From the NCBI GenBank assembly GCA_050633305.1, contig JBOEGF010000046.1:1-22290 (forward strand): a stretch of DNA of 22,290 nt, written 5' to 3'. A program made the translations under genes and the position numbers. This DNA comes from Nannocystales bacterium (GTDB lineage: Bacteria; Myxococcota_A; Polyangia; Nannocystales; Nannocystaceae). The notes below the pieces were generated by a model. It was not told the DNA's origin. It searched no databases and was given only the letters and a program-made list of their open reading frames with translations. Positions 135 to 16,308 of the stretch are shown in pieces. Position 1 is the first letter of the stretch, and the number at the start of each line of letters is the position of its first letter.

Positions 135-833
135 ATGGAACGAACCGGACTTGTCGTGACCGTGGCGAGCCAAAAGGGCGGTGCTGGGAAAACCACTCTC
201 GCGACAGGTCTCGCGGCCGCGTGGCGGGCGTCGGGGTTGAAGGTCCTGATCGTGGACGCGGATCCCCAGGATACCGCTTCCTCATGGGCGGCGAAGGCAC
301 CAGAGGGGGAGGGCATCGATGTGATCAGCGTCGAGCAGGGACGTTTGCTCCTGAGGCAGATCCCAAAGCTGTCGGAGGACTACGACCGCATTGTCATCGA
401 CACCCCACCTCGGCTCGGCCCAGAGCAGCGAGGAGCGGTTCTTGTAGCTGATGCGGTTGTCGTTCCAACGTGCTGTGGCGGGTTCGAGGGCGATGCGCTC
501 GGTCCGACGCTCGACTACTTGGATGCGATCACTGCATCGCACCCGGGGACCCCTCCCAAGGTCTTGCTGACACTCAACAAGATGGCGCGGACGCTTCTTT
601 GCGATGCTTTGCGTGCCGACGTGAGAGAGGCGGGGATCACGGTCCTGAGGACCGAGATCCCTCAGCGAGTGCGGATCGCGGAGGCTCAGAGCGCCGGCGT
701 CACCGTCGTGGACTACGAGCCCAAGGATCCCGCTGCACTCAAGTTCCTGCAGCTTGTCAAAGAAATCGAAAACCATGTCTTCGAGAGCGGAGCCGAGAGC
801 TCAGACCCGAAGGCCGATGGTCGAGCAGCTTGA
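135..833 (+). CDS. parA: ParA-family Walker-type partition ATPase (short, type Ib/ParF-like, no N-terminal HTH)
   Basis: Deviant Walker A SQKGGAGKTT, A' motif VDADPQ, Walker B VIDTPP. ATG at 135 is preferred over the TTG at 84. Confidence 0.93.
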   Translation: MERTGLVVTVASQKGGAGKTTLATGLAAAWRASGLKVLIVDADPQDTASSWAAKAPEGEGIDVISVEQGRLLLRQIPKLSEDYDRIVIDTPPRLGPEQRGAVLVADAVVVPTCCGGFEGDALGPTLDYLDAITASHPGTPPKVLLTLNKMARTLLCDALRADVREAGITVLRTEIPQRVRIAEAQSAGVTVVDYEPKDPAALKFLQLVKEIENHVFESGAESSDPKADGRAA

Positions 834-916
834 TTCGGGAAGTAGAAAACCATGTCTTCGAGAGCGGTACCGAGAACTCAGATCCGAAAACCCAAGCCGA
901 CGGTCGAGCAGCTTGA
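762..916 (+). repeat. Diverged tandem duplication (762-833 and 839-916) spanning the parA stop and the partner-gene start
   Basis: gaaatcgaaaaccatgtcttcgagagcggagccgagagctcagacccgaaggccgatggtcgagcagcttga versus gaagtagaaaaccatgtcttcgagagcggtaccgagaactcagatccgaaaacccaagccgacggtcgagcagcttga; copy 2 has a 6-nt insertion. Confidence 0.95.
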
Positions 917-1187
917 AAAGGCCTTCGAGTCCGTCGAGGATGTCTCGCCGGCCCCGCCGTTGGAGGTCGTCGCTCCTCCGTCCGCGGTCGTGCCCAAGCC
1001 CGTTGTTCAGCCGGACAGTGAGCCGAAGAAGAAATCGAAAAAACTAGACACGTCGTCTTCACGGCTGAAGCAAACGCTGTACCTCAGCAAGGAGGTGCGT
1101 CGCGCTCTGAAGCTGCGGGCTGTTGATGAGGAATGCGAGCTGTCGGACCTAGCTGAGCGGGCGCTACGCAAGTTCCTCAAGGTCTAG
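852..1187 (+). CDS. Ribbon-helix-helix centromere-binding partner (ParG/CopG-like)
   Basis: Disordered Pro/Lys-rich N-terminus and a C-terminal RHH pattern RLKQTLYLSKEVRRALKLRAVDEECELSDLAERALRKFL; lies directly downstream of parA. Confidence 0.8.
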   Translation: MSSRAVPRTQIRKPKPTVEQLEKAFESVEDVSPAPPLEVVAPPSAVVPKPVVQPDSEPKKKSKKLDTSSSRLKQTLYLSKEVRRALKLRAVDEECELSDLAERALRKFLKV

Positions 1188-2376: not shown

Positions 2377-3735
2377 ATGGATGACGAACGACTCACGAGG
2401 ACGATTCACGAGATCCGAAGCCGGCAGGTGCGGGGCCCAAAACCCGAGATGCTCCGGCTCCGAGTCTTTTTTCCCGACGGCGAGAAGACCATCGAGGTGC
2501 AGGGGCCGAAGGTGGTCGTTGGGGCCCACCCAAACTCCGACCTTGCGTTGCAGGCCGAGGGCGTGAGCGCCCTGCATTGCGAGTTTGAGGTGCTTCCGGA
2601 TGGGGCTGCTGTCGTGCGGGATCTTGGGAGCAAGAACGGCACGTCGGTGGCCGATGGGTCGGTTCGGGTGAACGAGGTGCGCTTGCTCCCAGGAGCACGG
2701 GCGAAACTAGGCGAAGTCGTCGTCGAGCTTCTGGGGGTGGATGCCGTCGAGGTCCCGGTTGCGACGACGGATCGCTTTTGCGACTTCTTCGGCGTTGGCG
2801 GGAAGGTTGGGTCGTTGATCGCATCCCTCGAGCTTCAGGCTCCGACCGATCTCTCGGTGCTCGTCGTAGGAGAGTCCGGGACGGGCAAGGAACTGATCGC
2901 CCGAGGTTTGCACGAGCGCTCGTTCCGAAGCTCGGGACCCTTTCAGGTGGTCGATTGCGGAAGCCTGTCCTCCAGCCTCGCTCCGAGTAAGTTGTTCGGA
3001 CACCGAAAGGGGGCCTTCACCGGAGCTTCCGAGTCGAGGCCGGGAGTGTTCGAGGCGGCCGATGGAGGGACGGTTTTTCTCGATGAGATCGGGGAGCTTC
3101 CGTTGGACCTACAGCCGATGCTTCTGCGTGCCCTGGAAGCCAGGACCACATGCAGGGTCGGCGAAGATGAATATCGCGAGTTCGATGCGCGGGTTGTTGC
3201 CGCGACGAACCGAGACCTGCGTCGGGCTGTGAACGAGGGCAAGTTTCGCGAAGACCTCTACTTCCGGCTCGCGCAATCGGTTGTGGCGGTTCCGCCTCTG
3301 CGAGAGCGAGGGGCAGGCAACGTGGCGATGCTGGCGGAGCGGTTTCTGGCCCAGGCCGAGGGGGTCGCGGGGGTCCGGGGTCTTCGGTTCTCGCGAGGTT
3401 CCATCGAGGCGATGGAGCGACATGCATGGACGGGGAACGTCCGGGAGTTGAGGAACGTCGTCGCTCGGGCTGCAGAGCTTGCCGTGAGGACAGGGGCGAC
3501 GACGATCGACGAGGACAGGCTAGCTCTCCAGGGGAAAGGCAGCGTGAGCCGAGACGCAGCGGCGCCGATGTCGTGGGCGCGAGGGATGGCGCTCAAGGAA
3601 GCCAAACTCGAGTTCGAGCGGCGCTTTGTCGCCCTGACCTTCGCGACTTCGGGGAGTCGAGCTGAAGCTCAGCAGCGCATGGGCGTGAGTGCCAGCACTT
3701 TTCACGCCCTGCTCAAGCGCACGGGGGACCGGTGA
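2377..3735 (+). CDS. FHA-domain sigma54-dependent transcriptional activator (enhancer-binding protein, AAA+ with C-terminal Fis-type HTH)
   Basis: FHA-like VVVGAHPNSD..VSALHC..RDLGSKNGT; Walker A GESGTGKE; GAFTGA; Walker B FLDEIGE; FREDLYFRL; WTGNVRELRN. ATG at 2377 has gaggaag upstream. Confidence 0.95.
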   Translation: MDDERLTRTIHEIRSRQVRGPKPEMLRLRVFFPDGEKTIEVQGPKVVVGAHPNSDLALQAEGVSALHCEFEVLPDGAAVVRDLGSKNGTSVADGSVRVNEVRLLPGARAKLGEVVVELLGVDAVEVPVATTDRFCDFFGVGGKVGSLIASLELQAPTDLSVLVVGESGTGKELIARGLHERSFRSSGPFQVVDCGSLSSSLAPSKLFGHRKGAFTGASESRPGVFEAADGGTVFLDEIGELPLDLQPMLLRALEARTTCRVGEDEYREFDARVVAATNRDLRRAVNEGKFREDLYFRLAQSVVAVPPLRERGAGNVAMLAERFLAQAEGVAGVRGLRFSRGSIEAMERHAWTGNVRELRNVVARAAELAVRTGATTIDEDRLALQGKGSVSRDAAAPMSWARGMALKEAKLEFERRFVALTFATSGSRAEAQQRMGVSASTFHALLKRTGDR

Positions 3736-3743
3736 GATGCTCG

Positions 3744-3777
3744 CTCGCTTTTCCGAGTTTCGCCTCGGAAAAGCGAG
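3744..3777. promoter_or_regulatory. Paired CTCG-N6-CGAG boxes forming a perfect 14-bp inverted repeat; candidate enhancer (UAS)
   Basis: ctcgcttttccgag tttcgc ctcggaaaagcgag; the same box pair recurs at 9497-9529. Confidence 0.65.
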
Positions 3778-3810
3778 GCGCTCACGAGTGCAAGTCTCCG
3801 AGGTGTGGTG

Positions 3811-3826
3811 TGGTTCGGTGCTTGCA
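3811..3826 (+). promoter_or_regulatory. sigma54 -24/-12 promoter for the kinase operon
   Basis: TGGTTCGGTGCTTGCA has GG-N10-GC with TTGCA, 26 bp before the ATG at 3853. Confidence 0.6.
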
Positions 3827-3852
3827 CCTCAGTGAGCGCAAGGTGATGGCTC

Positions 3853-5310
3853 ATGTCTGAGGTCCAGTTTGGCCGATACGTCCTCATGGAGCCGCTTGGC
3901 AAAGGAGGGCAGGGGAGGGTGTTCTTGGCTCGGCGCGTGAGCGACCTCGTCGAAGGTTGGCCGGTTGTCATCAAGCTCGCGCATGAATCCGCCGTACACG
4001 ACGAGAGAGAGCGGGCGCGTTTCGTCGAAGAGGCCAAGAACGCGCTTCGGCTCGGAGATGGGCCCGGCATCGTCACGGTGACCGACGTCGACGTCCACGA
4101 CGGGGTTCCTTTCATCGTGATGAACTACGACGATGGGTGCGACCTGCGTCGGGTCATGAGGTACTACCGGGAGACCGAGAAACGGCCGATACCGCTGCCG
4201 TTGGCATGCTCTCTTCTCAGAGATATGGCCGAAGGACTCCATTTCGCACACTTCGGGCGCGAGGTCGGCGGTGTCCCATTAGGGCTCGTGCACCGGGATG
4301 TGAAGCCCGGCAACACCCTGGTTTCCTTTAAGGGGCACGCGAGGTTGCTCGACTTTGGGATCAGCACGACGCGAGCCGATGAGAGGACGGGCCGCACCCA
4401 GTACGGAACGCCTCGCTACATGTCGCAAGACCACTTCTACTGCAAGGTCAACCCGTCGATGGACGTGTACTCGCTCGCCGTGCTTGCGTGGGAGATGCTC
4501 GAAGGGAGGACGTTCAGGGATGGCCAGGAAGGGTTCTCTGGAGACTTCCCCTGGGCTGTCATCAATCTCGAGCCCCCGCCGATGCGTCGCGAGGGACTGC
4601 CGCCAGACATCGTTGGGCTGATCAGCGCTGGGTTGGCTCCGTCCGCTCGGCCGAGCGCCCAGGAGTTCATGACGGTCGTCCATCGCCACGTGCAAAAAGA
4701 GCGGCGGAAGCAGGTTAAGTCAATGGTCCAGACCGTGCTTGGGCGTCGAGCTCGGACGCACCACACGCGGTACATGGAGATCCCAGAGGCTCTTCGAGAG
4801 GGAGAGGGGGGAGGTGAGGGTCCTGGCGACGACGAGGTCACTGTCGCCGTTCCGTCGCAGCCTGAACCGGAAGAGCTGACGATGATGGTGTCAGGCGAAG
4901 ACGAGGCTCGACAGGCGGGTGCCGAGCAGGATGTCCCGAGTTTCTACCGCCGCAAGCGGAACACTCCGTCGGTGGACGTAGTAGAGATGCGGCCGACGGA
5001 GGAGAGCGCCCCGACGGTCGAGGTCACGACGGTGTTGCCGACATCTGAGTCCCGAGGCTGGTCGGCTCGGTCCTCGAGTGCGGATACCGAGGTTCTCCCG
5101 CCTCCACGGGCGACCCCCGTTCGCGTCACGTCACTTGCGCCCGCTGAAAGGGCACAGACTCGACAGATCGCCACCCCTAAACCTGATGTCCTGGCAGAGG
5201 GCAAGCTGTCGGGTCGTGGGCGCTTCGCCGCGTTCCTGATCCTCGGGATGCTTTTGTCATGCGCCGGCGCCGTCGCTGCCTCGTGCTGGCTGCTTGGAGG
5301 GGGCAAATGA
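3853..5310 (+). CDS. Hanks-type Ser/Thr protein kinase with C-terminal membrane anchor
   Basis: GKGGQGRV, VVIK, HRDVKPGN, DFG, GTPRYMSQD, DVYSL; a low-complexity linker and a terminal hydrophobic helix FAAFLILGMLLSCAGAVAASCWLL. Confidence 0.93.
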   Translation: MSEVQFGRYVLMEPLGKGGQGRVFLARRVSDLVEGWPVVIKLAHESAVHDERERARFVEEAKNALRLGDGPGIVTVTDVDVHDGVPFIVMNYDDGCDLRRVMRYYRETEKRPIPLPLACSLLRDMAEGLHFAHFGREVGGVPLGLVHRDVKPGNTLVSFKGHARLLDFGISTTRADERTGRTQYGTPRYMSQDHFYCKVNPSMDVYSLAVLAWEMLEGRTFRDGQEGFSGDFPWAVINLEPPPMRREGLPPDIVGLISAGLAPSARPSAQEFMTVVHRHVQKERRKQVKSMVQTVLGRRARTHHTRYMEIPEALREGEGGGEGPGDDEVTVAVPSQPEPEELTMMVSGEDEARQAGAEQDVPSFYRRKRNTPSVDVVEMRPTEESAPTVEVTTVLPTSESRGWSARSSSADTEVLPPPRATPVRVTSLAPAERAQTRQIATPKPDVLAEGKLSGRGRFAAFLILGMLLSCAGAVAASCWLLGGGK

Positions 5311-7169
5311 GCGAGTCGGGTCCTTTGCTCGTCGACGACGGCGAGCTTCGATTGCCCCCTGGTACGGAGATCGCTGGCGCTGTGGTGCAGGGCGAAATGG
5401 CGCGTGGAGGGATGGCGATTGTCTACCGGGCCCAGCGTGAAGACGGGACAGTGGCGGCGCTCAAGGTTGGAACCGGGGAGGCCGCTAGCCGCCCGGGAGT
5501 TGAGGAGCGCTATCGGAACGAGGAACGCACCGGTGCGCGCCTTCGGCATCCGAACATCGTGCGGCCGATCGCTGTGGGGCGGCTAGACGGACCTGCCGGG
5601 TTCGAGGGCCGAATGTTCCTGCTGACCCAGTACGTAGACGCTCCGTCGCTGTCCCATTTCATGATGTACCACGCTGACGGGGTGCCCCTTGACCAGCTGT
5701 GGGCGATTGGGCGCCAGCTTTCGGGATCCTTGAAGGCGATGCACGACGTGGGGGTCGTCCACCGTGACATCAAGCCGGACAACGTTCTCGTTGGAGACGA
5801 CGGCCACGTGCATGTCATCGACTTTGGGCTCGCGTTCTCGCTGGGAGATGTGCGCGGCGAGCAACGGTCCGAAGAACTCACGCTCGCCGGCGATGCTCCC
5901 GGGACACCTCTGTACATGTCTCCTCAGCAGGCGATGCATAAGCCTGTGTCGAGGAGCTTCGACATCTACGCCTTCGGTGTGCTGCTCTACGAGATGTGTT
6001 GTGGAAGTGCTCCGCATGACCATCTACCTCCGTGTGAGATCGCGGCAGCGAGGAGTGACGAGAAATCGAAGCCTTTGTCTCTGACGATCATGGCTCCGAG
6101 AGTGCCCGCGTCGCTGGTGGGGCTGATCGAGCGCTGTATGGCCTATGACCCTGAGCAGAGGCCGACCGCCGAGGAGGTATTCGCGTTCTTCGGGGAGGAG
6201 AATCCCGAAGAGAGAACGACAGCTCCTGAGCTGCGAGTTGTCAGCCCTCCCGCCGAGTTGAGCGGGACCCCGGACCCTGCGGCGCAGGCACGGCATCCGC
6301 CGGTTGTTGCAGAAGGCGCTCGCGAAGCGGGCGATCAGACGATGGCGAAGCTCGTGCGTGATGGTGTCGGGATGCCATCGGTCGGACGACTTCGTGCTGA
6401 ACTCGCGAAAGTCGATGACCGCATGATCGTGTCCAAGGCGCAGGCCCACGCTGCGCTCGGACATCCCGTGTCAGCAGGAAAGCCGAGCAGCACAGAGGCG
6501 GTGAGGGAGTATCCCGTGCTCCCGGATGGTGAGCCGGGTGAAGAGGCGGACGAGTCGCTAGGCTCGTGGTTGGCGGTGGCGTTGCTCGTATTCGTGTCAG
6601 TTGTCGCGCTTACAGGTTGGATTCTGCTAAGGGATAGGGGGGGGCCCGAGGATGCTTCGGCTGTTCCCGCTGCGGTTGTGCCTTCCGTAGGTCCGGATGC
6701 GAACGATGCCGTTGTGCCCTTGCTCGATCTGCCGCCCGCTGAGGTACCGGCGCTCTCGCGCGACCTTGGTGTGCCCCAGCGACCGCCAGACCCCGTTGCG
6801 GGGGTCGAGTCCGCGGATTCGTCCCCGTCCCCGTCCCCGTCCCCGTCCCCGTCGAGACGGGACGCGTCCAAGCCGCGAAGAAAGAAGGCGGCTCTCCCCA
6901 CCGTTGCCGATGTTGCGGCCGAAGACACGGAGGCGTGTGTGCAGCGGAGGCAAGCGGCCAAGCGAGCAGCGAAGTCGAATCGCTCTCGCGACGTGCTGCG
7001 TCACACGAAGAGCCAGCGGTGCTGGAAGAAGACCGCGGTCGAGCGTGACTTCCTGCGGACCGTCGCTTTCCACGACCTCGGACAGTTCTCGGCCTGCGAA
7101 CGCGCGGGTCGTGGAAGTGCTCACGCGCAAGCTCGCGCCTACGCCAAACTCTGCGCCTCGAAACTCTAG
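5307..7169 (+). CDS. Transmembrane Ser/Thr protein kinase with an extracytoplasmic Pro-rich linker and Cys-containing tip
   Basis: ARGGMAIVY, AALK, HRDIKPDN, DFG, GTPLYMSPQQ, DIYAFG; TM WLAVALLVFVSVVALTGWILL; ATGA overlap with the upstream kinase. Confidence 0.93.
   Translation: MSESGPLLVDDGELRLPPGTEIAGAVVQGEMARGGMAIVYRAQREDGTVAALKVGTGEAASRPGVEERYRNEERTGARLRHPNIVRPIAVGRLDGPAGFEGRMFLLTQYVDAPSLSHFMMYHADGVPLDQLWAIGRQLSGSLKAMHDVGVVHRDIKPDNVLVGDDGHVHVIDFGLAFSLGDVRGEQRSEELTLAGDAPGTPLYMSPQQAMHKPVSRSFDIYAFGVLLYEMCCGSAPHDHLPPCEIAAARSDEKSKPLSLTIMAPRVPASLVGLIERCMAYDPEQRPTAEEVFAFFGEENPEERTTAPELRVVSPPAELSGTPDPAAQARHPPVVAEGAREAGDQTMAKLVRDGVGMPSVGRLRAELAKVDDRMIVSKAQAHAALGHPVSAGKPSSTEAVREYPVLPDGEPGEEADESLGSWLAVALLVFVSVVALTGWILLRDRGGPEDASAVPAAVVPSVGPDANDAVVPLLDLPPAEVPALSRDLGVPQRPPDPVAGVESADSSPSPSPSPSPSRRDASKPRRKKAALPTVADVAAEDTEACVQRRQAAKRAAKSNRSRDVLRHTKSQRCWKKTAVERDFLRTVAFHDLGQFSACERAGRGSAHAQARAYAKLCASKL
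6821..6850 (+). repeat. (GTCCCC)5 in-frame microsatellite encoding a Ser-Pro run
   Basis: Five perfect hexamers inside kinase 2. Confidence 0.9.
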
Positions 7170-7181
7170 GACCCCCCAGCA

Positions 7182-7955
7182 ATGATCGCTCTGCTCCTTG
7201 CCGCAGCATTCGCCCCCGAAGTCGTCGAAGTCGACGATATTCCCGAGAGCCCCGAGCCCTGCGCTGTGGTGTGGGAGTCCGATGAGTACCCAGACTTCGT
7301 GGAGATCACCGACCCGAGAATCCACCAACGGTGCAGGGACTTGGTCGACACGCTCGGGTTCGAAGGGGACCCGGAGTCGATCGCGATCGAGGTCTCCGGC
7401 GAATTCTTAAAGTTCCAGGTTCGAGTCTCGGTTGCGGAGGGCGAGGCTGTCCTTTATGCGGGAGAGCAGACCGAGGTCTGCGAGTGCGGTGCCAACGAGC
7501 TGACGACGCTTGCCATGAAGGAGGTCGTCGCTGCTCTGAAGGCGCTCGAAGAAACAGCCGAGAACGAGGAATCTGGCGATTCGAGCGAGGCGGGCACCCA
7601 GAGCGCGGTCGACGAAAAACCGGACCCACAGACCAAGGTACCCAAGCACGCGCTCCGATGGGTCGGCGTTGGCGTGGGTGTGGCCGGGTTGGGTGTTGGG
7701 ATCACAGGCGGAGGGCTCATGCCTCGCGAGAAAACCGAGCGACGTTTCGATGGCGAGAGGGTCGGGACCGAGCTTGTCCGCAAGCACCCCCTTCCGCTGA
7801 CGGCCACTCTCGTGGGGGTCGGGGCGGCGGGCGTCGTTGCGGGGGTCGCGATGATCGTCATCGACGCGAAACGCTCGAGGGACCCCAAACGAACATCCTT
7901 TTCGCCGACATTCGGCACCCAACACGTCGGTTTTTCGCTGACCGGAAAGTTCTAA
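7182..7955 (+). CDS. Exported protein with two Gly-rich hydrophobic segments and a C-terminal Phe-ending strand (myxobacterial-type membrane-anchored protein)
   Basis: Short signal-like MIALLLAAAFAP; WVGVGVGVAGLGVGITGGGL and LVGVGAAGVVAGVAMIVI; ends VGFSLTGKF. Confidence 0.75.
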   Translation: MIALLLAAAFAPEVVEVDDIPESPEPCAVVWESDEYPDFVEITDPRIHQRCRDLVDTLGFEGDPESIAIEVSGEFLKFQVRVSVAEGEAVLYAGEQTEVCECGANELTTLAMKEVVAALKALEETAENEESGDSSEAGTQSAVDEKPDPQTKVPKHALRWVGVGVGVAGLGVGITGGGLMPREKTERRFDGERVGTELVRKHPLPLTATLVGVGAAGVVAGVAMIVIDAKRSRDPKRTSFSPTFGTQHVGFSLTGKF

Positions 7956-7958
7956 ACC

Positions 7959-9488
7959 ATGCGTATCGCAGCCCTGTCCTCTGTCCTTCTTCTGTGCGCC
8001 TGCGGTGACTTCGGAACGTTCTCCGCAGATCCCGACTATTGCGGCGAGAACGACGGCGACGCCTATTGCGGTCGCGTGAGTCCCGATAAACCGTACTGCG
8101 TCGTGGGAACGCAGTCGTGCTTCGATGCGGCCGGGATCGACGTGAACGACCCCTATGGCTGTGTCGCTGCGATGCCTGCGGCGGAGTGCCGCACCGAGTG
8201 CGGGATCGATGGTGGGGACGAGTGTGCCGTTAGCAGCGAGACATTGAGCGGGAGTTCGAGCAGCACTGGGGAAGATACGGAGGGGCCAGCGACGAGCACG
8301 ACGGCGGAGCCCGAGACGGACACGGAGGGACCGAGTTCGACGACCGGACCGGGGTGCTCGGAGAGCATTCCGTGTGTTGACGCCGAGCGTCCGTTCTGCA
8401 TCGAGGGGGAGTGCTCTACGTGTGATGTCGCGGCGGAACCCGATGCGGCGTGCTCCGAGTTCGACGCGGCCACATCGCTGTGTGTGGATGCGACGTGCGT
8501 GCAGTGCACAGCAGAGGATGCAAGCGCGTGCGGAGGAACGACGCCGCTGTGCGACGAAACGAGCAACAGGTGCGTGGGCTGCGAGTTCCACGAGCAGTGC
8601 GAGGACCTCGGCCTGCACGCGTGCAACATCGCAACGGGGGCATGCTTTTCGGCCGATGCAGCGAACGTGACGATGGTGAGCGTGGCGACGCCCGGTGCAG
8701 TCGCGACGGCGGTCGCGAATGTGGAAGACGGAGCCGAGCACACCATCGTGCTAACGGCCAGCGCAGGCGACAACGCCATCGTCGTCGACGGCGGCAAGAC
8801 CATCGCCATCGTCTCGGACGGCACGACAGATCGGGTCGTGCAAGGCAGCACGGGAAGCCCCACGGTGACCGTCACAGGCGCAGACTCGACCGTCTACCTG
8901 CACCGCCTGGAGTTGACGCTCAACGGTGACGACGTGGGCATTTCAGTGGAGTCCTCGGGAACGCTGTACGCTGACAGCACTCGCATCTCTCAGAACTCCG
9001 GCGGCGGTATCGAGCTGGCCGCGGGTACGAGCGGGTTCCTGAGAAACTGCATGATCGGTCGAAACGGCGACGAGTTCGCTTCCACGACGGGCATCACCTC
9101 AGCGGGCGAGCTGAACGTCCTATACTCGAGCATCGTCGCCAACGACGGTGACGGCGCCGACTCCCTCCAGTGCAGCAGCGGGTCAGTGGTCGTTCGCAAC
9201 AGCATCTTCGTCGGCTCCGATGCGAACTCCATCGACTGCGGCGTTCTCGAGGCCTCGAACTCGGCGTTCGACGAAGCTGTTGCTGGGAACGACAACGTGG
9301 GCGCGCTCGACCCTGGATGGTTTGACGGAGTAGCGAGTGCAAACTTCAACCTCAGCGCCGCTGGTCAAACCGAGTTCGCGGACATTGCCATTTGGGAAGA
9401 CGGCGACCCGCCGTTCGACTTCGACGGGGAGCTCCGGCCAAACACCAACGGCGCGTCGGACCACGCAGGAGCGGACACGGTTCCATAG
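7959..9488 (+). CDS. Cys-rich lipoprotein with a Thr/Ser/Glu linker and a C-terminal beta-helix-like domain
   Basis: Lipobox-like LLCA-C; repeated P.C....C..C units; C-terminal repeats such as STRISQNSGGGI, NCMIGRN, YSSIVAN, RNSIF; ends DFDGELRP...AGAD. Confidence 0.8.
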   Translation: MRIAALSSVLLLCACGDFGTFSADPDYCGENDGDAYCGRVSPDKPYCVVGTQSCFDAAGIDVNDPYGCVAAMPAAECRTECGIDGGDECAVSSETLSGSSSSTGEDTEGPATSTTAEPETDTEGPSSTTGPGCSESIPCVDAERPFCIEGECSTCDVAAEPDAACSEFDAATSLCVDATCVQCTAEDASACGGTTPLCDETSNRCVGCEFHEQCEDLGLHACNIATGACFSADAANVTMVSVATPGAVATAVANVEDGAEHTIVLTASAGDNAIVVDGGKTIAIVSDGTTDRVVQGSTGSPTVTVTGADSTVYLHRLELTLNGDDVGISVESSGTLYADSTRISQNSGGGIELAAGTSGFLRNCMIGRNGDEFASTTGITSAGELNVLYSSIVANDGDGADSLQCSSGSVVVRNSIFVGSDANSIDCGVLEASNSAFDEAVAGNDNVGALDPGWFDGVASANFNLSAAGQTEFADIAIWEDGDPPFDFDGELRPNTNGASDHAGADTVP

Positions 9489-9496
9489 GTGGATGC

Positions 9497-9529
9497 CTCG
9501 GAAAACCGAGGTGAACTCGGGAAAACGAG
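9497..9529. promoter_or_regulatory. Second pair of CTCG-N6-CGAG boxes; candidate enhancer (UAS)
   Basis: ctcggaaaaccgag (9497-9510) and ctcgggaaaacgag (9516-9529), 13/14 and 12/14 identical to the box at 3764. Confidence 0.65.
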
Positions 9530-9585
9530 CGAGGCAGCCGCTCTCGCAGTAGCGGTAAACCTCTGAAATCACGTCGCCCAGCAAG

Positions 9586-9601
9586 TGGGACGCCACTTGC
9601 T
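9586..9601 (+). promoter_or_regulatory. sigma54 -24/-12 promoter for the vgrG operon
   Basis: TGGGACGCCACTTGCT has one mismatch to TGGCACG-N4-TTGCT and lies within the palindrome 9580-9601. Confidence 0.7.
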
Positions 9602-9614
9602 CATGTAGTCAGAC

Positions 9615-9782
9615 GTGTTCATCGAGCGCACTGAGGACAAGGCAAGAGCGCAGCTGGCCCGGCTGCAGGCGTTCACGCGGAAGTTCAGAACCCCCAGAGG
9701 GGTGGTGTTCCGAGCTGACGGAACCCTGATCGTCGAAGACACCGCCTCTGGCGTCCTTCATTCCGAACAGGGGCAGGGATGA
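9615..9782 (+). CDS. Small hypothetical protein (55 aa; not in the ORF track)
   Basis: GTG start, MFIERTEDKARAQLARLQAFTRKFRTPRGVVFRADGTLIVEDTASGVLHSEQGQG*; ATGA overlap with the next ORF. Confidence 0.45.
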   Translation: MFIERTEDKARAQLARLQAFTRKFRTPRGVVFRADGTLIVEDTASGVLHSEQGQG

Positions 9783-9958
9783 CCCGCCGCAGCATCCTCC
9801 CGTCGTTCCTACGCCGAGAGTCGTCCTCAGGGCGCCTCAGCACGCCACCGAAGCGCCCAGGGTCCTCACTGCCCACGACGCCTGCGATCGACCCCTGGAT
9901 GTCCTACGGCGCATCCCTGGTCGAGCTGGCTCGCATGACCGAAGAGGTGGTGCGATGA
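9779..9958 (+). CDS. Small hypothetical protein (59 aa; not in the ORF track)
   Basis: MTRRSILPSFLRRE...PAIDPWMSYGASLVELARMTEEVVR*; ATGA overlaps at both ends. Confidence 0.5.
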   Translation: MTRRSILPSFLRRESSSGRLSTPPKRPGSSLPTTPAIDPWMSYGASLVELARMTEEVVR

Positions 9959-10194
9959 GCCGGCCGCGAATGTGGATGCAGGTCGGGACCTGGCCGCCGC
10001 CACCGGAGGCTCGTCCAAGCGCGGGACACGTCCAGTGGCAACCCCCGCCTGTGTTCGCGCAGTGGCGTCCGTCTCGGAACTCGCAGGTTCAACGACGCCG
10101 ATGGGTAGCGGCGAGCATCGTCTCTGCTGCTGCCTTCGGAGCGACCGCGGGCAGCCTCGCGACGGCCATGCTGATCGGTGCGGTGTGCGGATGA
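9955..10194 (+). CDS. Small Pro/Trp-rich protein with a C-terminal TM helix (79 aa)
   Basis: RRRW followed by the hydrophobic stretch VAASIVSAAAFGATAGSLATAMLIGAV; gaggtgg RBS; ATGA overlap with vgrG. Confidence 0.55.
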   Translation: MSRPRMWMQVGTWPPPPEARPSAGHVQWQPPPVFAQWRPSRNSQVQRRRWVAASIVSAAAFGATAGSLATAMLIGAVCG

Positions 10195-12557
10195 CCCTTC
10201 TCCCCGTCAGCGTCTCCACCCACCTGTGCACAGTCGATGGGGATGAGCCCGCGCTCGCAACCCGGCATTTCGAGTTGGTCGAGCGCATCGACCATCCCTT
10301 CGAGGCCACCGTAGAGCTTGTCACCGAAGACACCGGACTCGACGTTCGCTCTCTGCTCGGCGCTCGGGCCGTTCTCGAACTCGACCGACCGGACGTGACC
10401 GCGCGAACGCTGGGCGGCGTGGTCACGCGCTCGGAGTACGTGACGACCCGCGGGCGGCAGCTCTTCGTGCGGGTGGTCGTCGAGCCTTCGCTGGCATTGC
10501 TCCGCTACTCGACGCGGCGCCGCATCTTCGCCGACCAGACGCTACTCGAAGTGTTGGAGGCCGTGGCCGGTCCGGTCTTCGCCGCCCACGGGGGAGCGTG
10601 GGAGGCCTCGCGGCTGCGAGCGCAGCCGGAACCACGGGACTACATCGTCCAGTACGACGAGACCGACCTTGAGTTGGTACTGCGGCTGCTCTCGGAGTCT
10701 GGGCTCTGCTTGCTGCACGGCATGAGCGATGAGGAGGGCGAACCGCTCTACGTTCTGCTCGACAGCAACGACGCACTGCCGAGCTTCGTCATGGACCCGG
10801 CCATTCAGGCCGACTCCACCCCATGGACGGTGTCGTTCATCCCTGATGCTGAAGAGGAAGCGGACGAGCCGAGCGTGCAATACCTCGGGCGCTGGGACGG
10901 CCTGCACGCACAGGGGACTACGACCGCGGCGCGCAACTGGAAGACGCTTGGGGGCACCCGGTTTGCAACGAGCATCGAGCTGGGCGACGACCGTGGGCGG
11001 GAAGGGCACGCGTGGAGCTACCACCCGGGCCGCCTGGACGAAGGGAAGGGGAGCGAAGGCCCCCTCCACAACGAAACCGAGGCGTGGGCGACACGACTGC
11101 TCGAGGAGCAGCGCGCTGGCGGCGTGGAGGTCACGGGCGCGAGCAACGTGGCGGACTTCACCGCAGGCGCAACGTTCGAGCTGCAGGAGCACCCGCATGT
11201 CGACCTGGACCAGCGCTACGCGGTGCTGAGCGTGGTGCATCAGGCGGACTTTCCTGAGGCGGAGCTCGCGGACGGACACCGAGCCCCGAGCTATACAAAC
11301 CGCTTCGTGGCTGCGCCTTTGGGCGCGGGCCCCGTGCGTCCGCCGCTGCGTTCCAAAGCACGAGCGACAGGCATCGAGTCCGCCACCGTCGTAGGCCCGG
11401 AGGGCGAGGAGGTGCACACCGATGCGCTCGGCCGAGTCCAGGTGCGGTTCCATTGGGACGATGAGCCGAGTCAGACCTGTTGGCTACGGGTCATGTCGTC
11501 GTGGGCCGGCCCCGGTTACGGCGCGAGCTTCATTCCCCGCGTGGGTATGGAGGTCGTGGTCGGTTTCCTGGGCGGTGACCCGGACCGCCCGGTTGTGACG
11601 GGCTGTCTGTACACGGGCACGAACACGCCACCGGGCGCTCTGCCGGAGACCAAGACCTGCACCACGCTGCGGACGTTGAGTACGCCCGGCGGAGAGGGGT
11701 TCAACGAGCTTCGGTTCGAGGATGCCGCCGGAAGCGAAGAGGTGTTCATGCATGCCCAGCGCAACCAGCGAACGGTTGTGCGTGCGGCTCAGTCCACGAA
11801 CGTCGGCGCCTCGCGGTCCCTGTCGGTGGGCAAGAACTCCACACGCACCATTGGCGGCAATGAAACCGTGCAGGTGGGAACGCCCAACGCCGAGGAGAAG
11901 GGCGAGCTTCAGGTCTCCGTGACCGGAGGCGAGCTACGCAAGATTGGGGACATTCACGCCCTGGAGACTGTGTCCGCGTTCTGGACCGCTGACGAGGCCA
12001 TCGTGGCCAACGCGGAGGAGCGTGTCTGTTGGTCCTGTACGTCCGGCCCCCAGAGCTTGGAGGGGGTGCCCACCGGAGGCACGGTCCTCACGCTCGAACC
12101 GAAATCGGGGAAGCTCGAAGCCCTGGAAAGCATCGAGCTGCGGGTCGGCAAGACCTCGCTCAAGTTGACTCCCCGAGGCATCGAGCTTCGTGGCGACCTC
12201 ATTACGGCGAAAGCCGATGAACAGGTCTGGGTCGCTGCACCCGGAGGGCGGTTGTCCTGCAACAAGAAGGAGGCGGAAGTCTCCGGTGGGGCAGGGCGGG
12301 AGTCCTTCGTAAAACTGCGGGCCGATGCTCTGGACTGCAAGGCAAGAGGGCTGCTCCGTCAGTCGGGTAAGTCGGTCATCGTGGCGGGGACCGATGTGGT
12401 GCGCGCCTCGGCCTCTGAGGTCAAGGTCTCGGCCACAGGCTCCGTCGACATCGATGCGAGTACAGGACACGTCGTCGTCGCCGGTGGCTCGATGGATATT
12501 CACGCACCCACCGGAAAAGTCGACGTCAAAGGGGCGCCGATCAACCTGAACTGCTGA
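10191..12557 (+). CDS. vgrG: Type VI secretion system spike protein VgrG/TssI
   Basis: YIVQYDETD; ATVVGPEGEEVHTDALGRVQVRFHWD; CWLRVMSSWAGPGYGASFIPRVGMEVVVGFLGGDPDRPVVTGCLY; FNELRFEDAAGSEEVFMHAQRN; beta-repeat tail ending INLNC. Confidence 0.95.
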   Translation: MTLLPVSVSTHLCTVDGDEPALATRHFELVERIDHPFEATVELVTEDTGLDVRSLLGARAVLELDRPDVTARTLGGVVTRSEYVTTRGRQLFVRVVVEPSLALLRYSTRRRIFADQTLLEVLEAVAGPVFAAHGGAWEASRLRAQPEPRDYIVQYDETDLELVLRLLSESGLCLLHGMSDEEGEPLYVLLDSNDALPSFVMDPAIQADSTPWTVSFIPDAEEEADEPSVQYLGRWDGLHAQGTTTAARNWKTLGGTRFATSIELGDDRGREGHAWSYHPGRLDEGKGSEGPLHNETEAWATRLLEEQRAGGVEVTGASNVADFTAGATFELQEHPHVDLDQRYAVLSVVHQADFPEAELADGHRAPSYTNRFVAAPLGAGPVRPPLRSKARATGIESATVVGPEGEEVHTDALGRVQVRFHWDDEPSQTCWLRVMSSWAGPGYGASFIPRVGMEVVVGFLGGDPDRPVVTGCLYTGTNTPPGALPETKTCTTLRTLSTPGGEGFNELRFEDAAGSEEVFMHAQRNQRTVVRAAQSTNVGASRSLSVGKNSTRTIGGNETVQVGTPNAEEKGELQVSVTGGELRKIGDIHALETVSAFWTADEAIVANAEERVCWSCTSGPQSLEGVPTGGTVLTLEPKSGKLEALESIELRVGKTSLKLTPRGIELRGDLITAKADEQVWVAAPGGRLSCNKKEAEVSGGAGRESFVKLRADALDCKARGLLRQSGKSVIVAGTDVVRASASEVKVSATGSVDIDASTGHVVVAGGSMDIHAPTGKVDVKGAPINLNC

Positions 12558-13888
12558 TGGCTGGCGACCCCACATTGTTCGAGATGCTTGGACTCCCTTC
12601 GGTGGACGAAGACGCACGCGTAGCGGAGGCCCGTATGCGAGAGCGGTTCGGGGAGCTTCTCTTCCAAGGTCGTTACCCGTGGCCGAGTGAACTCGCTCGG
12701 GATCGGGAGCGGCCGCCCCACGAGGAACTGAGTCAGTGCACCGGCCTGCTGACGCACGCCGACATCTTCGGAGGGAGCGAGTGCCTGGAAGAGTGGGCGG
12801 AGAAATACGGTCCCGAAGACGAGTCCGACGAAGAGGACGATGGCTTTCCGTGGAAGATCGGTGCCCTCCTTGCGGCGGGTTGGGTGGTCTGGGAAATGCT
12901 GGACAAGCCGGTCAGTCTCCCCCCGGGCGAAGTCGAAGGTTCGCTCGACGGGTTCGAGATCGATGGCATCCCGTGGACGGTGGAGCGGATGCACCACCCC
13001 GGGGCTCCACACGCGGCCAGGGTCGGCGAGATGATGTTGCACGGGGGCACGGCGCTCCCGGGGCCAGGCTCGTCCAATGTGAAGATCGGCGGCCTCGGAG
13101 CGCTAACGTTCGAGCATGCGGTCGCCTCGTGCCCGCTGACGAACGTGGTGGGGATTCCCCACCTACCGCAGCCAGGCTCGTGGACGACCACGAACACCAA
13201 GGTGTTCGTCAATGGCTGGCCGCTACTGAGGCGGGGAGACTGGGTGGTGGAGACTCCCGGGGGCGCCAACCCCATCTCGGGCGGCATGCCCTCGGTGGTC
13301 GCCGGACCACCAGCACGCTCAAGCTTGGTCGAAGAGGTGCACTACCTGGGGCTCGATCTTCTCTCGGACGGCCTCGAGCGCGCTGGGTGGACTGGGCCAA
13401 CGTTGAAACTGAGCGCAACAGCGAGTTGGACATGGCAGGGCATTGTGGGGACAGGGGTCGCGGTCGGCTTGCTTCACGCGGGTGCGGCGAACCCGATGCT
13501 CGCTCCAGTGGCGGGTTGGGGGGCCAAGAAGATTCTCGCCGCGATCGACAAACCAGAAATATCCCTGGGGATCGACATCGACCTCGGAAGCCTGTTTGCG
13601 GAGTACCGAGAGGACCGGAAGAACCCGTACCCGTGGGGTCCGAGAGGACGGTCCAAGCGGACGCGCTGGGTGTTCGACCTGCCGCACTGGTTTGACGAGC
13701 GCTCGGCCGAGGTCGATCCGACGAAGCCCGTTCCTCCGACGAAGAAAGAGGAAAAAGAAGGGTGGAAGCAGGAACCACTCGACGACGGCCCGAAGAAGCA
13801 CGACCAGGACGGTTGGGACTTCGGACCGATTCACAAGCGGTCGCAGGACCACGATTCCGAAGAACAACCCGAGGCCTGGGAGGACTGA
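12557..13888 (+). CDS. PAAR-domain protein with N- and C-terminal extensions (candidate specialised effector)
   Basis: Central HAARVGE..HGG...CP..PH...VFVNGWPLLRRGD...ISGGMPSVVAG; hydrophobic segments on both sides; TGATG coupling to vgrG. Confidence 0.8.
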   Translation: MAGDPTLFEMLGLPSVDEDARVAEARMRERFGELLFQGRYPWPSELARDRERPPHEELSQCTGLLTHADIFGGSECLEEWAEKYGPEDESDEEDDGFPWKIGALLAAGWVVWEMLDKPVSLPPGEVEGSLDGFEIDGIPWTVERMHHPGAPHAARVGEMMLHGGTALPGPGSSNVKIGGLGALTFEHAVASCPLTNVVGIPHLPQPGSWTTTNTKVFVNGWPLLRRGDWVVETPGGANPISGGMPSVVAGPPARSSLVEEVHYLGLDLLSDGLERAGWTGPTLKLSATASWTWQGIVGTGVAVGLLHAGAANPMLAPVAGWGAKKILAAIDKPEISLGIDIDLGSLFAEYREDRKNPYPWGPRGRSKRTRWVFDLPHWFDERSAEVDPTKPVPPTKKEEKEGWKQEPLDDGPKKHDQDGWDFGPIHKRSQDHDSEEQPEAWED

Positions 13889-13892
13889 CCCT

Positions 13893-14924
13893 ATGAACGA
13901 CGACGTCTTGTTTCGCCATCCTGAACCCAGCCCCGATGCGCTCGCGCTGTCGCATGAGCTGCAATGCATTGAGATCGACTTCGACCCGGGCGCGAGCTTT
14001 GCGGTCCCGGTGCCGCGGTCGATGGCGACGGCTCGGCCGACCCGCCATATCCCTGAGAGGGGAGGGCGCCCGATGCCGATTGCGGTGTTCGGGGAGCCAC
14101 CGTCGCTCGAGGGCCCGCGACTGCTGGTCAGCTCGCAGACTCTTCCGTGGGAGGTCGACCCTCTCGAATGGTTGCGGTGGATGTGGATGAACGAAGGGTG
14201 GCGCATCGCGTGGACGAAGCGACATCCCGGACCCAACGGGCCTCGTTATGAGGTCGGAGCGCTCCGGGAAAAGGAAGGGCGAGTGGCAGTGCGGCGCACC
14301 ATGGCGGTGCGCTCTGGAGCCCGGCTGATGCGCTGTGACGCCTCGGCACCGCTGCCGCTGTGGCCCGGCCACCATGATGCGTTGTGGCACGCCATCAACG
14401 GCTTTCAGCTTGGGCAGCAGACCCGCGGAACCATTGAATCGCTCGTGGTCCGAGAGGGTCCGTTACTTGGCTTTGCCGTGCCGGGGTCCTGGGACGCGCG
14501 AGGGGAGGGCGACGAGACTCGGATGGAGTGGGCCGTGTTCTTAGACAGCGATGCGCAGCGCGGGGCGGCGCTCAAGATGCACGCGCAGCCGTTGGATCGC
14601 GCCCCCGATGCCGGGCTGCGCCGGGCTTCGCTGTGGCGGGAATTGAAGGCCGGAGGCGTTCCGTTGGGCGCGGTGCTGACCGCGGAACGGGCAGAGTTCG
14701 CCAAGGCCGTGCCGGGCTGGATCGGGCAATGGCAAGCGGCGATCGGCGGCGAAGGGCGAGACGGCGTCGTTGTACTCGTTCAGCGAGAAGACGAGGGGAT
14801 CGCACTTGATGTCTTGCTCGTGGCGCCCGCAGCTGGAACCGAACATGTGGATTGGATGCGGGCGACCCGAGCGCTCGACGTCGTCATCTCGACGACTCAG
14901 CTTCGGCCGCCGAGCGTCGCCTGA
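13893..14924 (+). CDS. Hypothetical protein, probably two tandem PsbP/Mog1/DUF1795(Eag)-like domains
   Basis: The two halves start SFAVPVPRSM and GFAVPGSW and end ASAP..W...DALWHAINGFQL and LVAP...W...RALDVVISTTQL; starts 4 bp after the PAAR gene. Confidence 0.6.
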   Translation: MNDDVLFRHPEPSPDALALSHELQCIEIDFDPGASFAVPVPRSMATARPTRHIPERGGRPMPIAVFGEPPSLEGPRLLVSSQTLPWEVDPLEWLRWMWMNEGWRIAWTKRHPGPNGPRYEVGALREKEGRVAVRRTMAVRSGARLMRCDASAPLPLWPGHHDALWHAINGFQLGQQTRGTIESLVVREGPLLGFAVPGSWDARGEGDETRMEWAVFLDSDAQRGAALKMHAQPLDRAPDAGLRRASLWRELKAGGVPLGAVLTAERAEFAKAVPGWIGQWQAAIGGEGRDGVVVLVQREDEGIALDVLLVAPAAGTEHVDWMRATRALDVVISTTQLRPPSVA

Positions 14925-15019: not shown

Positions 15020-15424
15020 ATGAAGACAGAACAACCAGATCGTTTGGAACGCTACGCCCGGTGGCTGTGGAAACGGTGGCGCCGCGCCGCTCACTATGCT
15101 CAGAAGACGAGCGTCGTCGATGCGCTGCTGCGCTATCGGTTCAAGGACCACCAAGAGGTCCGCAAGGCGGTGCGAGACGTCGTCGCCGGCCCCGAAGGGC
15201 TGGTCTACATGCTGCACCGAGCAAGGAGGGCCGCGCGGTACCGGCTCCGAGAAGAGGTCGAGGACATCGCAATCCGCATCGCGTTCGCGATGCCTGCGGG
15301 GGGCGGAGGTGTCATCGCGGAGAAGGTGCGAAAGGCAGGCTACGCCGTGAGCCGGTCGACGATTCGGCGGATCATGGTGCGACGCGGCGTGTGGGGGAAG
15401 GAGGGCGCAGATCGTGCCAGCTGA
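15020..15424 (+). CDS. HTH protein resembling the N-terminal DNA-binding region of IS481-like transposases, without a catalytic domain
   Basis: AGPEGL...EEVEDIAIRIAFAMPAGGGGVIAEKVRKAGYAVSRSTIRRIMVRRGV. Confidence 0.6.
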   Translation: MKTEQPDRLERYARWLWKRWRRAAHYAQKTSVVDALLRYRFKDHQEVRKAVRDVVAGPEGLVYMLHRARRAARYRLREEVEDIAIRIAFAMPAGGGGVIAEKVRKAGYAVSRSTIRRIMVRRGVWGKEGADRAS

Positions 15425-15695
15425 CCGCAACGAAGCCGTGGCCGCATGGGCGGAACTCGAGGATGCCGTCGGTCGCCTGGACTGGGCGACCGCATCGAAG
15501 CTCGCTCAGGCGTTTGAGAGGGAGTGGAATGCGGTTCGAGGCTTTGTCGAGATGTTCGCGGGACCGGATGGGGAGACGTGGGGGCGCCTGGTGGACAAGG
15601 CGATGAAGGCCCTGGTCGAAGCCCTGCGTGCGCGTCCTGTTGACCCCACGGTGGTCGACACGGCGATGTCACGGTTTCGGATGTTCATGCGGTGA
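15414..15695 (+). CDS. Hypothetical helical protein (93 aa)
   Basis: ggagg upstream of the GTG start; overlaps the upstream gene; amphipathic helices. Confidence 0.6.
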   Translation: MPADRNEAVAAWAELEDAVGRLDWATASKLAQAFEREWNAVRGFVEMFAGPDGETWGRLVDKAMKALVEALRARPVDPTVVDTAMSRFRMFMR

Positions 15696-15712
15696 AGGGG
15701 GGCTACTCGACG

Positions 15713-16189
15713 ATGCCTGTAGAAATTGAGGACTCGGCGTGGCCCGTCGTGAAGCTTCGGATTCGGGGAGCTATCTCGAGCGAAGAGGAGGACTGCTTCA
15801 TCGAGGCTTCGGCGGGGTTTCCCGACCGCGGGGAGCGATACGTCGCCGTGGTCGACCTTCTCGAAGCGAAAGCACCGTCGGGCCGCTTCATCCGAGGGCA
15901 AGCCGCGGCCATGGGAAAGCGTGCGACGGGACAGGAGGCTTGCTGTGTGGGGATGGCGTTCGTGATCGACTCGCCGATGCTCCGCGGGGCCCTTCAGGCG
16001 GTCTTTCACTTTCAGCGGCCTTCGAGTCCGTACGTCGTGATGAAGGATGCAGGGGAGGCTCGCCGCTGGGCAGAGTCGAAGCTTCCGGCCGCCCTGCCCG
16101 AGGACAGCACCGAGAACCGCGAAGGACCACGGGTGTGCCCTGGATGCGGCTGGATAGGCGCGGATGCAGGCCGCACGCATCGCACGTGA
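15713..16189 (+). CDS. STAS/SEC14 (SpoIIAA-like) domain protein
   Basis: WPVVKLRIRGAIS...YVAVVDL...GMAFVIDSPMLRGALQAVFHFQRPSSPYVVMKDAGEARRWA; alternative GTG start at 15692. Confidence 0.75.
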   Translation: MPVEIEDSAWPVVKLRIRGAISSEEEDCFIEASAGFPDRGERYVAVVDLLEAKAPSGRFIRGQAAAMGKRATGQEACCVGMAFVIDSPMLRGALQAVFHFQRPSSPYVVMKDAGEARRWAESKLPAALPEDSTENREGPRVCPGCGWIGADAGRTHRT

Positions 16190-16274: not shown

Positions 16275-16308
16275 TTCGGTCACGCTTTTGGGTGGAAACG
16301 TGACCGAA
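16275..16308. other. 34-bp dyad site A (recombination-site-like)
   Basis: ttcggtcacgcttt-tgggtg-gaaacgtgaccgaa. Confidence 0.7.

Follow-up and report, generated by a model that had tools for sequence, protein, structure and literature searches.

The stretch analysed here (the window) is contig JBOEGF010000046.1 at its full length of 22,290 nucleotides, that is, the whole of contig C46 in the 11.0 Mb, 90-contig assembly GCA_050633305.1 of a Nannocystales bacterium (Nannocystaceae). Below, G000 stands for this genome, C with a number for a contig, other G numbers for related genomes and L numbers for fetched loci. The window carries a gene for an FHA-domain sigma54 activator, followed by one operon for two Ser/Thr kinases, an exported protein (M) and a cysteine-rich lipoprotein and by another for VgrG, a PAAR protein and a putative chaperone of a type VI secretion system (T6SS). 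A preliminary description, made from the letters alone, had read this arrangement as a portable sense-and-arm module, and its gene order, strands and coordinates for the activator and the two operons were reproduced by Pfam and NCBIfam scans and gene calls. We consider it probable that this locus and its relatives are auxiliary T6SS spike clusters, each equipped with its own trans-envelope signalling pathway. The features on which this proposal is based are as follows.

2377..3735, plus strand: FHA-domain sigma54 enhancer-binding protein (the activator); GAFTGA intact, N-terminal T-x-T-hydrophobic tail, FHA G-R changed to G-A
3744..3777, no strand: paired 14-bp enhancer boxes of the kinase operon; quasi-palindromic, conserved in G003
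3791..3803, plus strand: IHF-like site of the kinase operon; weak (5/9 consensus positions), 20 bp before the -24 element
3811..3826, plus strand: sigma54 -24/-12 match of the kinase operon
3853..5310, plus strand: Ser/Thr kinase 1; intact catalytic motifs, membrane anchor at the C-terminus, no periplasmic domain
5307..7169, plus strand: Ser/Thr kinase 2; intact catalytic motifs, a single membrane helix, then a Pro-rich linker and a four-cysteine periplasmic domain
7182..7955, plus strand: protein M; 257 amino acids (aa), exported, C-terminal outer-membrane-type signal ending in Phe, no family
7959..9488, plus strand: lipoprotein; 29 cysteines, beta-helix region
9497..9529, no strand: paired 14-bp enhancer boxes of the vgrG operon; quasi-palindromic
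9556..9568, plus strand: IHF-like site of the vgrG operon; 7/9 consensus positions, 30 bp before the -24 element
9586..9601, plus strand: sigma54 -24/-12 match of the vgrG operon
9615..10194, plus strand: three small overlapping open reading frames (ORFs; 55, 59 and 79 aa); kept in same-genus copies, no family
10191..12557, plus strand: T6SS-type VgrG with a C-terminal extension; TIGR03361 at 396 bits (cut-off 186)
12557..13888, plus strand: PAAR protein, 443 aa; PF05488 at an E-value of 2e-5, just below the curated cut-off
13893..14924, plus strand: protein of 343 aa, predicted from an alignment-based fold to consist of two tandem PsbP/Mog1/DcrB-fold domains and to be cytoplasmic

Activator, sensor, enhancers and cargo

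The AAA+ sigma54-interaction domain of the activator is recognized by PF00158 at an E-value of 1.9e-59, with the GAFTGA loop present. As to a C-terminal Fis-type helix-turn-helix, HTH_8 has no match in the window activator and does match its paralogues on C48, C60 and C65, to which the C-terminal region aligns. A T-x-T-hydrophobic motif stands before the FHA domain in 17 of 36 tailed FHA activators, compared with 0/34 sigma54 activators that have no FHA domain and 195/6644 control N-termini. By analogy with the N-terminal threonine switch of GarA/OdhI, we favour this tail threonine as the candidate phosphorylation site. Both kinases possess H-R-D-x-K-P-x-N and D-F-G, motifs from which Hanks-type activity is predicted, and the C-terminal periplasmic domain of kinase 2 (the tip, approximately 6915-7166) has four cysteines that are invariant in all 36 aligned cassettes. 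Family scans of the window proteins returned neither a phosphatase nor a sigma factor family.

The sensing chain would begin with M and the lipoprotein. In structure prediction, M residues 12-150 and the kinase-2 periplasmic domain formed a complex with a score of 0.85 (best control 0.04), with 100% contact agreement among runs and a partner predicted local distance difference test (pLDDT) of at least 91. The mark used for such complexes was reached by 116/157 solved pairs and 2/215 mismatched pairs, counts that are only rough for alignments of the kind used here. M is thus predicted, from these models, to bind kinase 2 outside the cytoplasmic membrane, and the lipoprotein is a candidate for the outermost receptor. 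Alignments of M and of the kinase-2 tip had no sequence match to solved structures, that of the lipoprotein gave only a weak pectinesterase beta-helix match, and NCBIfam held no family for any of 36 lipoproteins. The lipoprotein gene also occurs in tandem arrays, with eight whole or partial calls in L052 (G004 C30), five in L136 and further arrays at L137-L138, L071 and L089; these resemble variable receptor or immunity arrays.

The common cis architecture that had been reported for both operons, two boxes and then a sigma54 match, was confirmed, and an IHF-like site is newly seen between them; these matches were made with the usual sigma54 and IHF consensus motifs. Allowing up to 2 mismatches, the 14-mer occurs at 314 single sites genome-wide, but just 2 pairs spaced by 16-24 bp exist and the window contains both, a count that shows rarity and not function because the pattern was derived from the window's own sites. 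A strict degenerate pattern searched over 72 genomes found only the two window sites and missed the G003 variants, and it is hence uninformative. The window's box was not found at the core T6SS clusters. A third pair near the core T6SS, obtained with a looser pattern, was rejected, as it lies inside the tssA coding sequence. A hexamer microsatellite (2313-2349) lies ahead of the activator gene.

When 29 promoters, 21 from the same genus and 8 from another, were aligned on the -24 element, the best IHF-like match fell at -29 to -31 in 15/21 promoters of the same genus and a helical turn closer, at -20, in 3 others, while the 8 other-genus promoters mostly deviate from this spacing. Each module copy carries its own, different box. 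On a rough z scale, the kinase and vgrG enhancers of one locus resembled each other at z of at least 3.5 in 6/8 loci, or 7/9 with G002 included (z 4.2-5.8), against 5/56 pairs of enhancers from different loci, 3 of these among related activators; the earlier proposal of boxes shared by the two promoters of a locus is thereby upheld for these loci, with the box being specific to the locus. The box also follows the activator's recognition helix. G003 and the window have an identical helix and the same box, C60, C65, C16 and G002 combine related helices with one common box, as do, in a second group, C68 and a remnant on C17. This co-variation points to the activator as the protein that would bind the boxes. 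On C17 (L009, 8337-8609) only the C-terminal helix-turn-helix (HTH) part of the activator is left, upstream of a vgrG operon that may be driven in trans because its enhancer matches those of C68 and C48. On C68 (L007, 10325-10450) the enhancer box has grown to six tandem copies.

The cargo operon opens with the three small ORFs (9615-9782, 9779-9958 and 9955-10194); all three have homologues in other copies, and two were also called by a codon-trained gene caller. An origin of the VgrG from an extracellular contractile injection system was rejected, as VgrG_rel reached 53 bits, under its cut-off of 275. The PAAR protein ends in a variable extension of 193 aa that belongs to no known family, and moderately hydrophobic segments flank its PAAR domain on both sides, with hydropathy peaks of only 1.15 and 1.37. 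The prePAAR motif, which we take to be D-x-x-x-H, was found within the first 40 residues of none of 16 PAAR proteins, and PADLOC matched 0 of 12 proteins. The alignment-based model of the 343-aa protein (pLDDT 90.2, compared with 31.5 for a single-sequence fold) resembles CyanoP (Z 16.9, root-mean-square deviation 2.2, 141 aligned residues), DcrB (Z 10.8; 2.6, 115) and SciW (Z 8.0; 4.7, 126), and EagT6 was matched by Foldseek at an E-value of 3e-3. The protein has no Pfam or NCBIfam match, so it is not DUF1795 by sequence, and its alignment yielded nothing useful when compared by sequence with solved structures. Eag chaperones have this fold, as do several T6SS immunity proteins; most members of the 343-aa protein's family start without a signal-peptide-like segment, and the family also accompanies PAAR-Rhs genes. 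On these modelled and contextual grounds, an Eag-like chaperone appears to be a better reading than an immunity protein.

Copies of the module and exchange of its parts

The preliminary description had noted the lack of T6SS core genes at the locus and had asked for a core system in the host. Both points were borne out: hcp, sheath and baseplate families are absent among the 25 window proteins scanned, and G000 has two core loci as well as rpoN. The first, on C18, comprises tssA, B, C, E, F, G, H, K, L and M, the only hcp gene, tagF and FHA genes, and gene calls place no vgrG in it; the second set, on C26, has its own divergent vgrG (24% identical to the window's). Among the matches listed, G000 has 9 VgrG proteins, 6 of them of the window's type, and TssC was found in all 12 genomes that have the chaperone family. 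With its VgrG apart from core genes and a core T6SS elsewhere in the host, the window contains what is, by gene content, an auxiliary (orphan) vgrG island. Another kinase-linked layout, three kinases, a LuxR-type HTH gene and vgrG, lies in L013 (C18, 364-384 kb), a stretch from which a sigma54 activator is absent.

The module was found three more times in G000 and is complete in six other Nannocystaceae genomes. In seven genomes, homologues of the activator-kinase cluster are found together with vgrG, which is the conserved synteny that the preliminary description had asked to search for. Within G000, complete copies on C48 and C60 differ from the window in gene order, and a further copy is obtained by joining C65 (activator, two vgrG) to C16 (kinases, M, lipoprotein) through the 8-bp target duplication of one IS66 insertion. 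C68 combines activator and kinases with a DUF2169/DUF4150/immunity cassette in place of vgrG, and on C17 a vgrG operon stands behind the activator remnant. The chaperone family occurs in 12/72 genomes of the order and in 13/300 sampled from the class, and homologues of the 343-aa protein are assigned to Nannocystaceae in their source records. Its matches in relatives gave 18 distinct loci from 19 stretches, weak or very short-contig matches having been set aside, and 12 of these (G001, G003, two in G004, six in G044 and two in G046) contain activator, two kinases, lipoprotein, PAAR, chaperone and VgrG. The remaining ones have kinases with other parts absent from the stretch (2), the lipoprotein only (3) or none of these (1). 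G002 adds a further copy, cut by a contig end.

A second set, chosen by the lipoprotein, comprised 40 stretches and 39 loci, the best-scoring new ones of more than 250 matches. Counted on these fetched loci, a kinase is adjacent in 27/39 and a T6SS tip or adaptor gene in 10/39, compared with 693/20000 random 20-kb windows of G000. Because of these counts, the sensor-kinase-activator cassette is best regarded as a general Nannocystaceae module, with T6SS cargo as one frequent output. Cargo in other copies includes PAAR-like DUF4150 genes with TsiV or SMI1/KNR4 immunity genes, PAAR-Rhs genes and M23/FGE pairs. The last of these, FGE-sulfatase-like and M23 peptidase genes downstream of the kinase cassette in L080, L082, L083, L104 and L066 (beside vgrG in L066), are probable effector-immunity cargo. 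In L077 an SpvB-domain gene follows the lipoprotein array. A CRISPR-Cas system with GSU0053/GSU0054 and a fused Cas4-Cas1 adjoins the module in L115 (G003) and L118 (G004).

Comparison of nine copies indicates which parts stay together: the activator co-travels with the kinase catalytic domains, the kinase-2 tip with M, and PAAR with the chaperone. On aligned sequences, the module can be described as three exchangeable blocks, namely a sensor (kinase-2 tip and M), the kinases with activator and enhancer, and the cargo. C60 and G002 are 79/64% identical in the kinase domains and 57-58% in the activator, whereas the intervening kinase-2 tip and M are only 25% identical. The window and G003 similarly agree in kinases (78-80%), HTH (75%) and vgrG enhancer, which is the same, but much less in tip and M (32-34%) and PAAR genes (46%). 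In these two comparisons the sensor block has been swapped between retained flanks, so the blocks assort beyond what linkage would give. The window's tip and M are in turn close to those of G002 (68/56%), with kinases at 27-31%. Between the window and C48, the vgrG regions have 85-97% DNA identity, while the enhancers are unrelated and the promoter is at alignment background. Given the block swaps and this last comparison, the enhancer belongs to the activator and not to the cargo.

Flanking genes and mobility

Outside the module, the window has the following features.

14..87, no strand: imperfect direct repeats with a 32-bp period upstream of parA, possibly centromere- or iteron-like
135..833, plus strand: ParA-family partition ATPase
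852..1187, plus strand: small ParA partner, no family over cut-off
15020..16189, plus strand: another three ORFs in the same orientation, of 134 aa (HTH-like), 93 aa and 165 aa
17542..18499, plus strand: tyrosine recombinase, frameshifted, preceded by a 226-bp duplication
22270..22290, no strand: end of an IS66-type element at the contig break

The three ORFs behind the chaperone gene, which are absent from the preliminary description, are 85-99% identical in the C48 and C60 copies where present. On the other side, the copies on C46, C60, G001 and G002 are flanked by parA together with its small partner gene, parA occurs also on C68, and a small gene like that at 852..1187 follows parA in L006 and L069. 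The C-terminus of its product is presumably ribbon-helix-helix-like, judged by eye. A conserved gene before parA in C60, G001 and G002 is replication-initiator-like by language-model features (0.92-0.94, a lead only). On the window contig itself there is no Rep-like gene, and terminal overlaps that would indicate circularity are absent. Plasmid records matched neither the Rep-like protein nor the lipoprotein. Among sequencing runs, one DNA run contained 0.30 of the words, its contigs being short and low in depth, and no RNA run was listed. Other module copies are found on contigs 0.2-0.8 Mb long. In G001, G004 and C68 the module is followed by a small tyrosine recombinase, and intact homologues of the window's gene are found there. 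In G000, one IS66-type element recurs as the breaking point of 13 contig ends, of which four pairs could be linked through target duplications of 8 bp; no target-site partner was found for the window's end. A mobile origin of the module is likely on these sequence features, and the mobility proposed earlier is suggested, with the qualification that the window's recombinase is frameshifted.

Several further features were observed. A 34-nt inverted repeat (82% complementary; 16275-16308 and 17187-17220) brackets a lone minus-strand gene of 234 aa upstream of the recombinase region, which could be an invertible or inserted cassette. A duplication with a 77-bp period overlies the parA stop (762-811 and 839-888), and an insertion-sequence (IS) fragment at 1676-2057 is common to C58 and C67. 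On C74, another parA-bearing contig with the same Rep-like gene, a 2722-aa SpvB/TcdB-Rhs protein is encoded (L011, 5079-13247).

Proposed pathway, alternatives and known systems

In the pathway that we propose, an outside cue would act on the lipoprotein and M, M would bind the periplasmic domain of kinase 2, as the predicted complex and co-inheritance suggest, and kinases 1 and 2 would become active. The kinases would then switch on the activator, most likely through a phosphorylated threonine of its N-terminal tail or, alternatively, through binding of the kinases' own phosphorylated loops by its FHA domain. Bound at the paired boxes and aided by IHF bending, the activator would open the two sigma54 promoters whose architecture is seen in the sequence, one giving more sensor and kinases and the other VgrG, the PAAR protein and the Eag-like chaperone. 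The spike may be taken up by a core T6SS of the host, probably the one on C18, which is without its own vgrG. A private box would insulate the copies within one cell, recombination would re-pair sensors, transducers and cargo, and the islands likely serve in cue-dependent antagonism or in kin discrimination. Phosphorylation, transcriptional activation, export and biological role are what we infer here. Relative to the sensing chain suggested before, the M/kinase-2 step gains support from the predicted complex and from co-inheritance, and the phospho step is not established for the window copy because its FHA domain is without both canonical arginines. The positive feedback also suggested before would raise the kinases and sensor and not the activator, whose gene is situated upstream of both box pairs.

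Several observations weigh against this pathway, and some of them lend themselves to other explanations. The z values derive from 25 shuffles, with search windows set by hand after the sequences had been viewed and with loci that are related, and 25 promoters were kept, 4/29 being dropped for lack of a clear site or of upstream room. A shared box was missed at C60 (z 0.4), where the vgrG enhancer matches that of G002 at z 8-12.7, and at G044 C147 (z 2.3), and the kinase promoters of C48 and C68 are unlike their cargo enhancers (z 1.9 and -0.5). Furthermore, the canonical FHA motifs are G-R, S-R-x-H and S-x-N-G (PMC8339232), and the window has G-A, S-A-L-H and S-K-N-G, both canonical phosphothreonine-binding arginines being gone. 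The same loss (G-A for G-R, no Arg in S-x-x-H) recurs in the G003, G004 C18 and G001 copies, with G-R kept by most other copies. The regulon could therefore be real with the degenerate FHA domain acting in protein contact or oligomerisation, the kinases acting elsewhere on the activator or on T6SS parts. That is distinctly unlikely in our judgement, as those four copies nevertheless keep the T-x-T-hydrophobic tail, Ser, His, S-x-N-G and intact kinase motifs, and their kinase domains travel with the activator. The counts of loci are a further difficulty. Of 16 cassettes with activator, kinase and lipoprotein, 11 are without a tip gene in the stretch and 5 have one; the activator-kinase part of the self-contained module described before is a family-wide cassette that mostly stands without a spike gene. 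None of five further chaperone loci (G061, two in G068, G157 and G199) has an activator or kinase in the stretch, and 2 of these 5 have every VgrG-PAAR-chaperone part yet lie in another family. With tip clusters existing without the cassette, 276 kinase-like genes and 13 FHA activators in the genome and the loci lying among IS and recombinase genes, a generic kinase cassette and a vgrG cluster might just have come to share one mobile island with no dedicated control. Such mere co-location is most improbable, for it leaves unexplained why both promoters of a locus carry a box specific to that locus, why this box changes along with the activator helix, and a vgrG enhancer that is kept while the genes on either side are replaced.

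The nature of the cargo raises two more alternatives. Scans for families in the PAAR extension and the neighbouring genes identified no toxin domain or immunity gene, and the extension is only 72 aa long in four G044 copies; of the spike/effector output envisaged earlier, the VgrG and PAAR proteins are present and an effector or immunity gene was not identified in these scans. Together with the enhancer common to sensor operon and cargo, this would suit a cargo that is itself the signal, a T6SS-delivered PAAR protein or envelope disturbance being sensed by the same island in neighbours, contact-dependent and self-amplifying among carriers. We regard this as very unlikely, considering that sensor and PAAR types assort apart (the window's sensor is close to that of G002 and its PAAR to that of C65, and C60 and G002 have a common PAAR but not a common sensor) and that other copies carry the ordinary toxin-immunity cargo described above. 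Alternatively, the two-domain PsbP-fold protein could be an immunity protein and the PAAR extension a cytoplasm-acting toxin. It has the same fold as Tsi3, TplEi/Tli4 and PA3488, and its gene directly follows and co-assorts with that for PAAR; the family is, however, also found beside PAAR-Rhs genes, as Eag chaperones are, and the size and two-sided hydrophobic layout of the PAAR protein are those of chaperoned class II effectors. An immunity function is on balance unlikely, and it would alter the cargo only and not the regulatory circuit.

We retain the kinase-to-activator pathway as our preferred explanation. Going further, it can be speculated, though we find it rather doubtful, that Nannocystaceae possess a combinatorial sense-and-fire code, in which each cell has many insulated kinase-to-sigma54 channels with private enhancers, and sensors and spikes are re-paired on plasmid-like elements. 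The neighbour or cue would decide which spike is loaded and, the main T6SS having no vgrG, whether it is fired at all; in the boldest form, toxin-less spikes would be a signal to siblings. The module matters beyond this idea. Myxobacteria have hundreds of Ser/Thr kinases with almost no inputs or targets assigned, and here candidates for a sensor, a receptor domain, a kinase pair, a transcription factor, a binding site and an output are named within 12.5 kb. Since the candidates are named and natural variants supply matched and mismatched pairs, kinase-to-FHA-activator signalling becomes directly testable. A cell could pick among T6SS spikes by cue and need not depend on a single global regulator, and the copies supply activator-enhancer pairs that are naturally orthogonal.

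Most parts of this scheme have counterparts elsewhere. FHA-domain enhancer-binding proteins of Myxococcus xanthus were reportedly described by Jelsbak et al. in 2005, who are said to have proposed their coupling to neighbouring Ser/Thr kinases; those activators, which have the same architecture as the window's, are reportedly tied to development and not to T6SS spikes, and no multi-copy box code is known to us there. In Vibrio cholerae and Pseudomonas aeruginosa, VasH and Sfa2 act in the RpoN and IHF control of auxiliary vgrG islands (PMC8855297, PMC10482370), and the window is like these in having a sigma54 promoter, enhancer, IHF site and enhancer-binding protein at a vgrG island away from the core. 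There, one activator from the core cluster, with GAF-type input, serves all islands, and hcp heads the island; in the present case FHA activator, kinases and box are particular to each island, and hcp is missing. The transmembrane Ser/Thr kinase of PknS-EcfK is needed for T6SS transcription in Xanthomonas citri (PMC6653060), with an extracytoplasmic function (ECF) sigma factor acting on the core cluster as output, in contrast to the sigma54 activator, two kinases, M/lipoprotein sensor and single spike island seen here. The transcriptional sense-and-arm reading is partly supported, while sigma54 control of vgrG islands and kinase-driven T6SS transcription were already published.

Other systems resemble single steps. 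In PpkA-Fha-PppA with TagQRST, a membrane kinase relays the signal of outer-envelope proteins to an FHA protein governing T6SS use (PMC10482370); that control is post-translational, whereas here FHA is fused to a DNA-binding activator and the island has no phosphatase. GarA/OdhI are stand-alone proteins in which a threonine motif of the FHA protein's own N-terminal tail brings about self-inhibition (PMC8339232), unlike the tail proposed here, which would gate an AAA+ activator. Eag chaperones have as partners class II prePAAR effectors, which measure some 450 aa and have hydrophobic regions flanking PAAR on either side (PMC7773334). The window's pair is similar in its PsbP/DcrB fold and in the size and layout of the PAAR partner and differs in its two fused domains, in having no DUF1795 match or prePAAR motif, and in the lack of a recognised toxin or immunity gene. 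Mx-alpha prophages of M. xanthus carry T6SS effector-immunity cassettes in kin discrimination (PMC10433427); like the islands, they represent dispersed T6SS cargo on mobile DNA in myxobacteria, and the available text describes no dedicated kinase-activator pathway for them. Our literature search, which left most subscription papers outside, found no account of a vgrG island equipped with a private kinase-FHA-activator pathway and with enhancers specific to it. The island works like a VasH/Sfa2 regulon with a PknS-like kinase input, yet belongs to neither class; its parts are known, and their per-island, insulated and recombining arrangement appears to be new.

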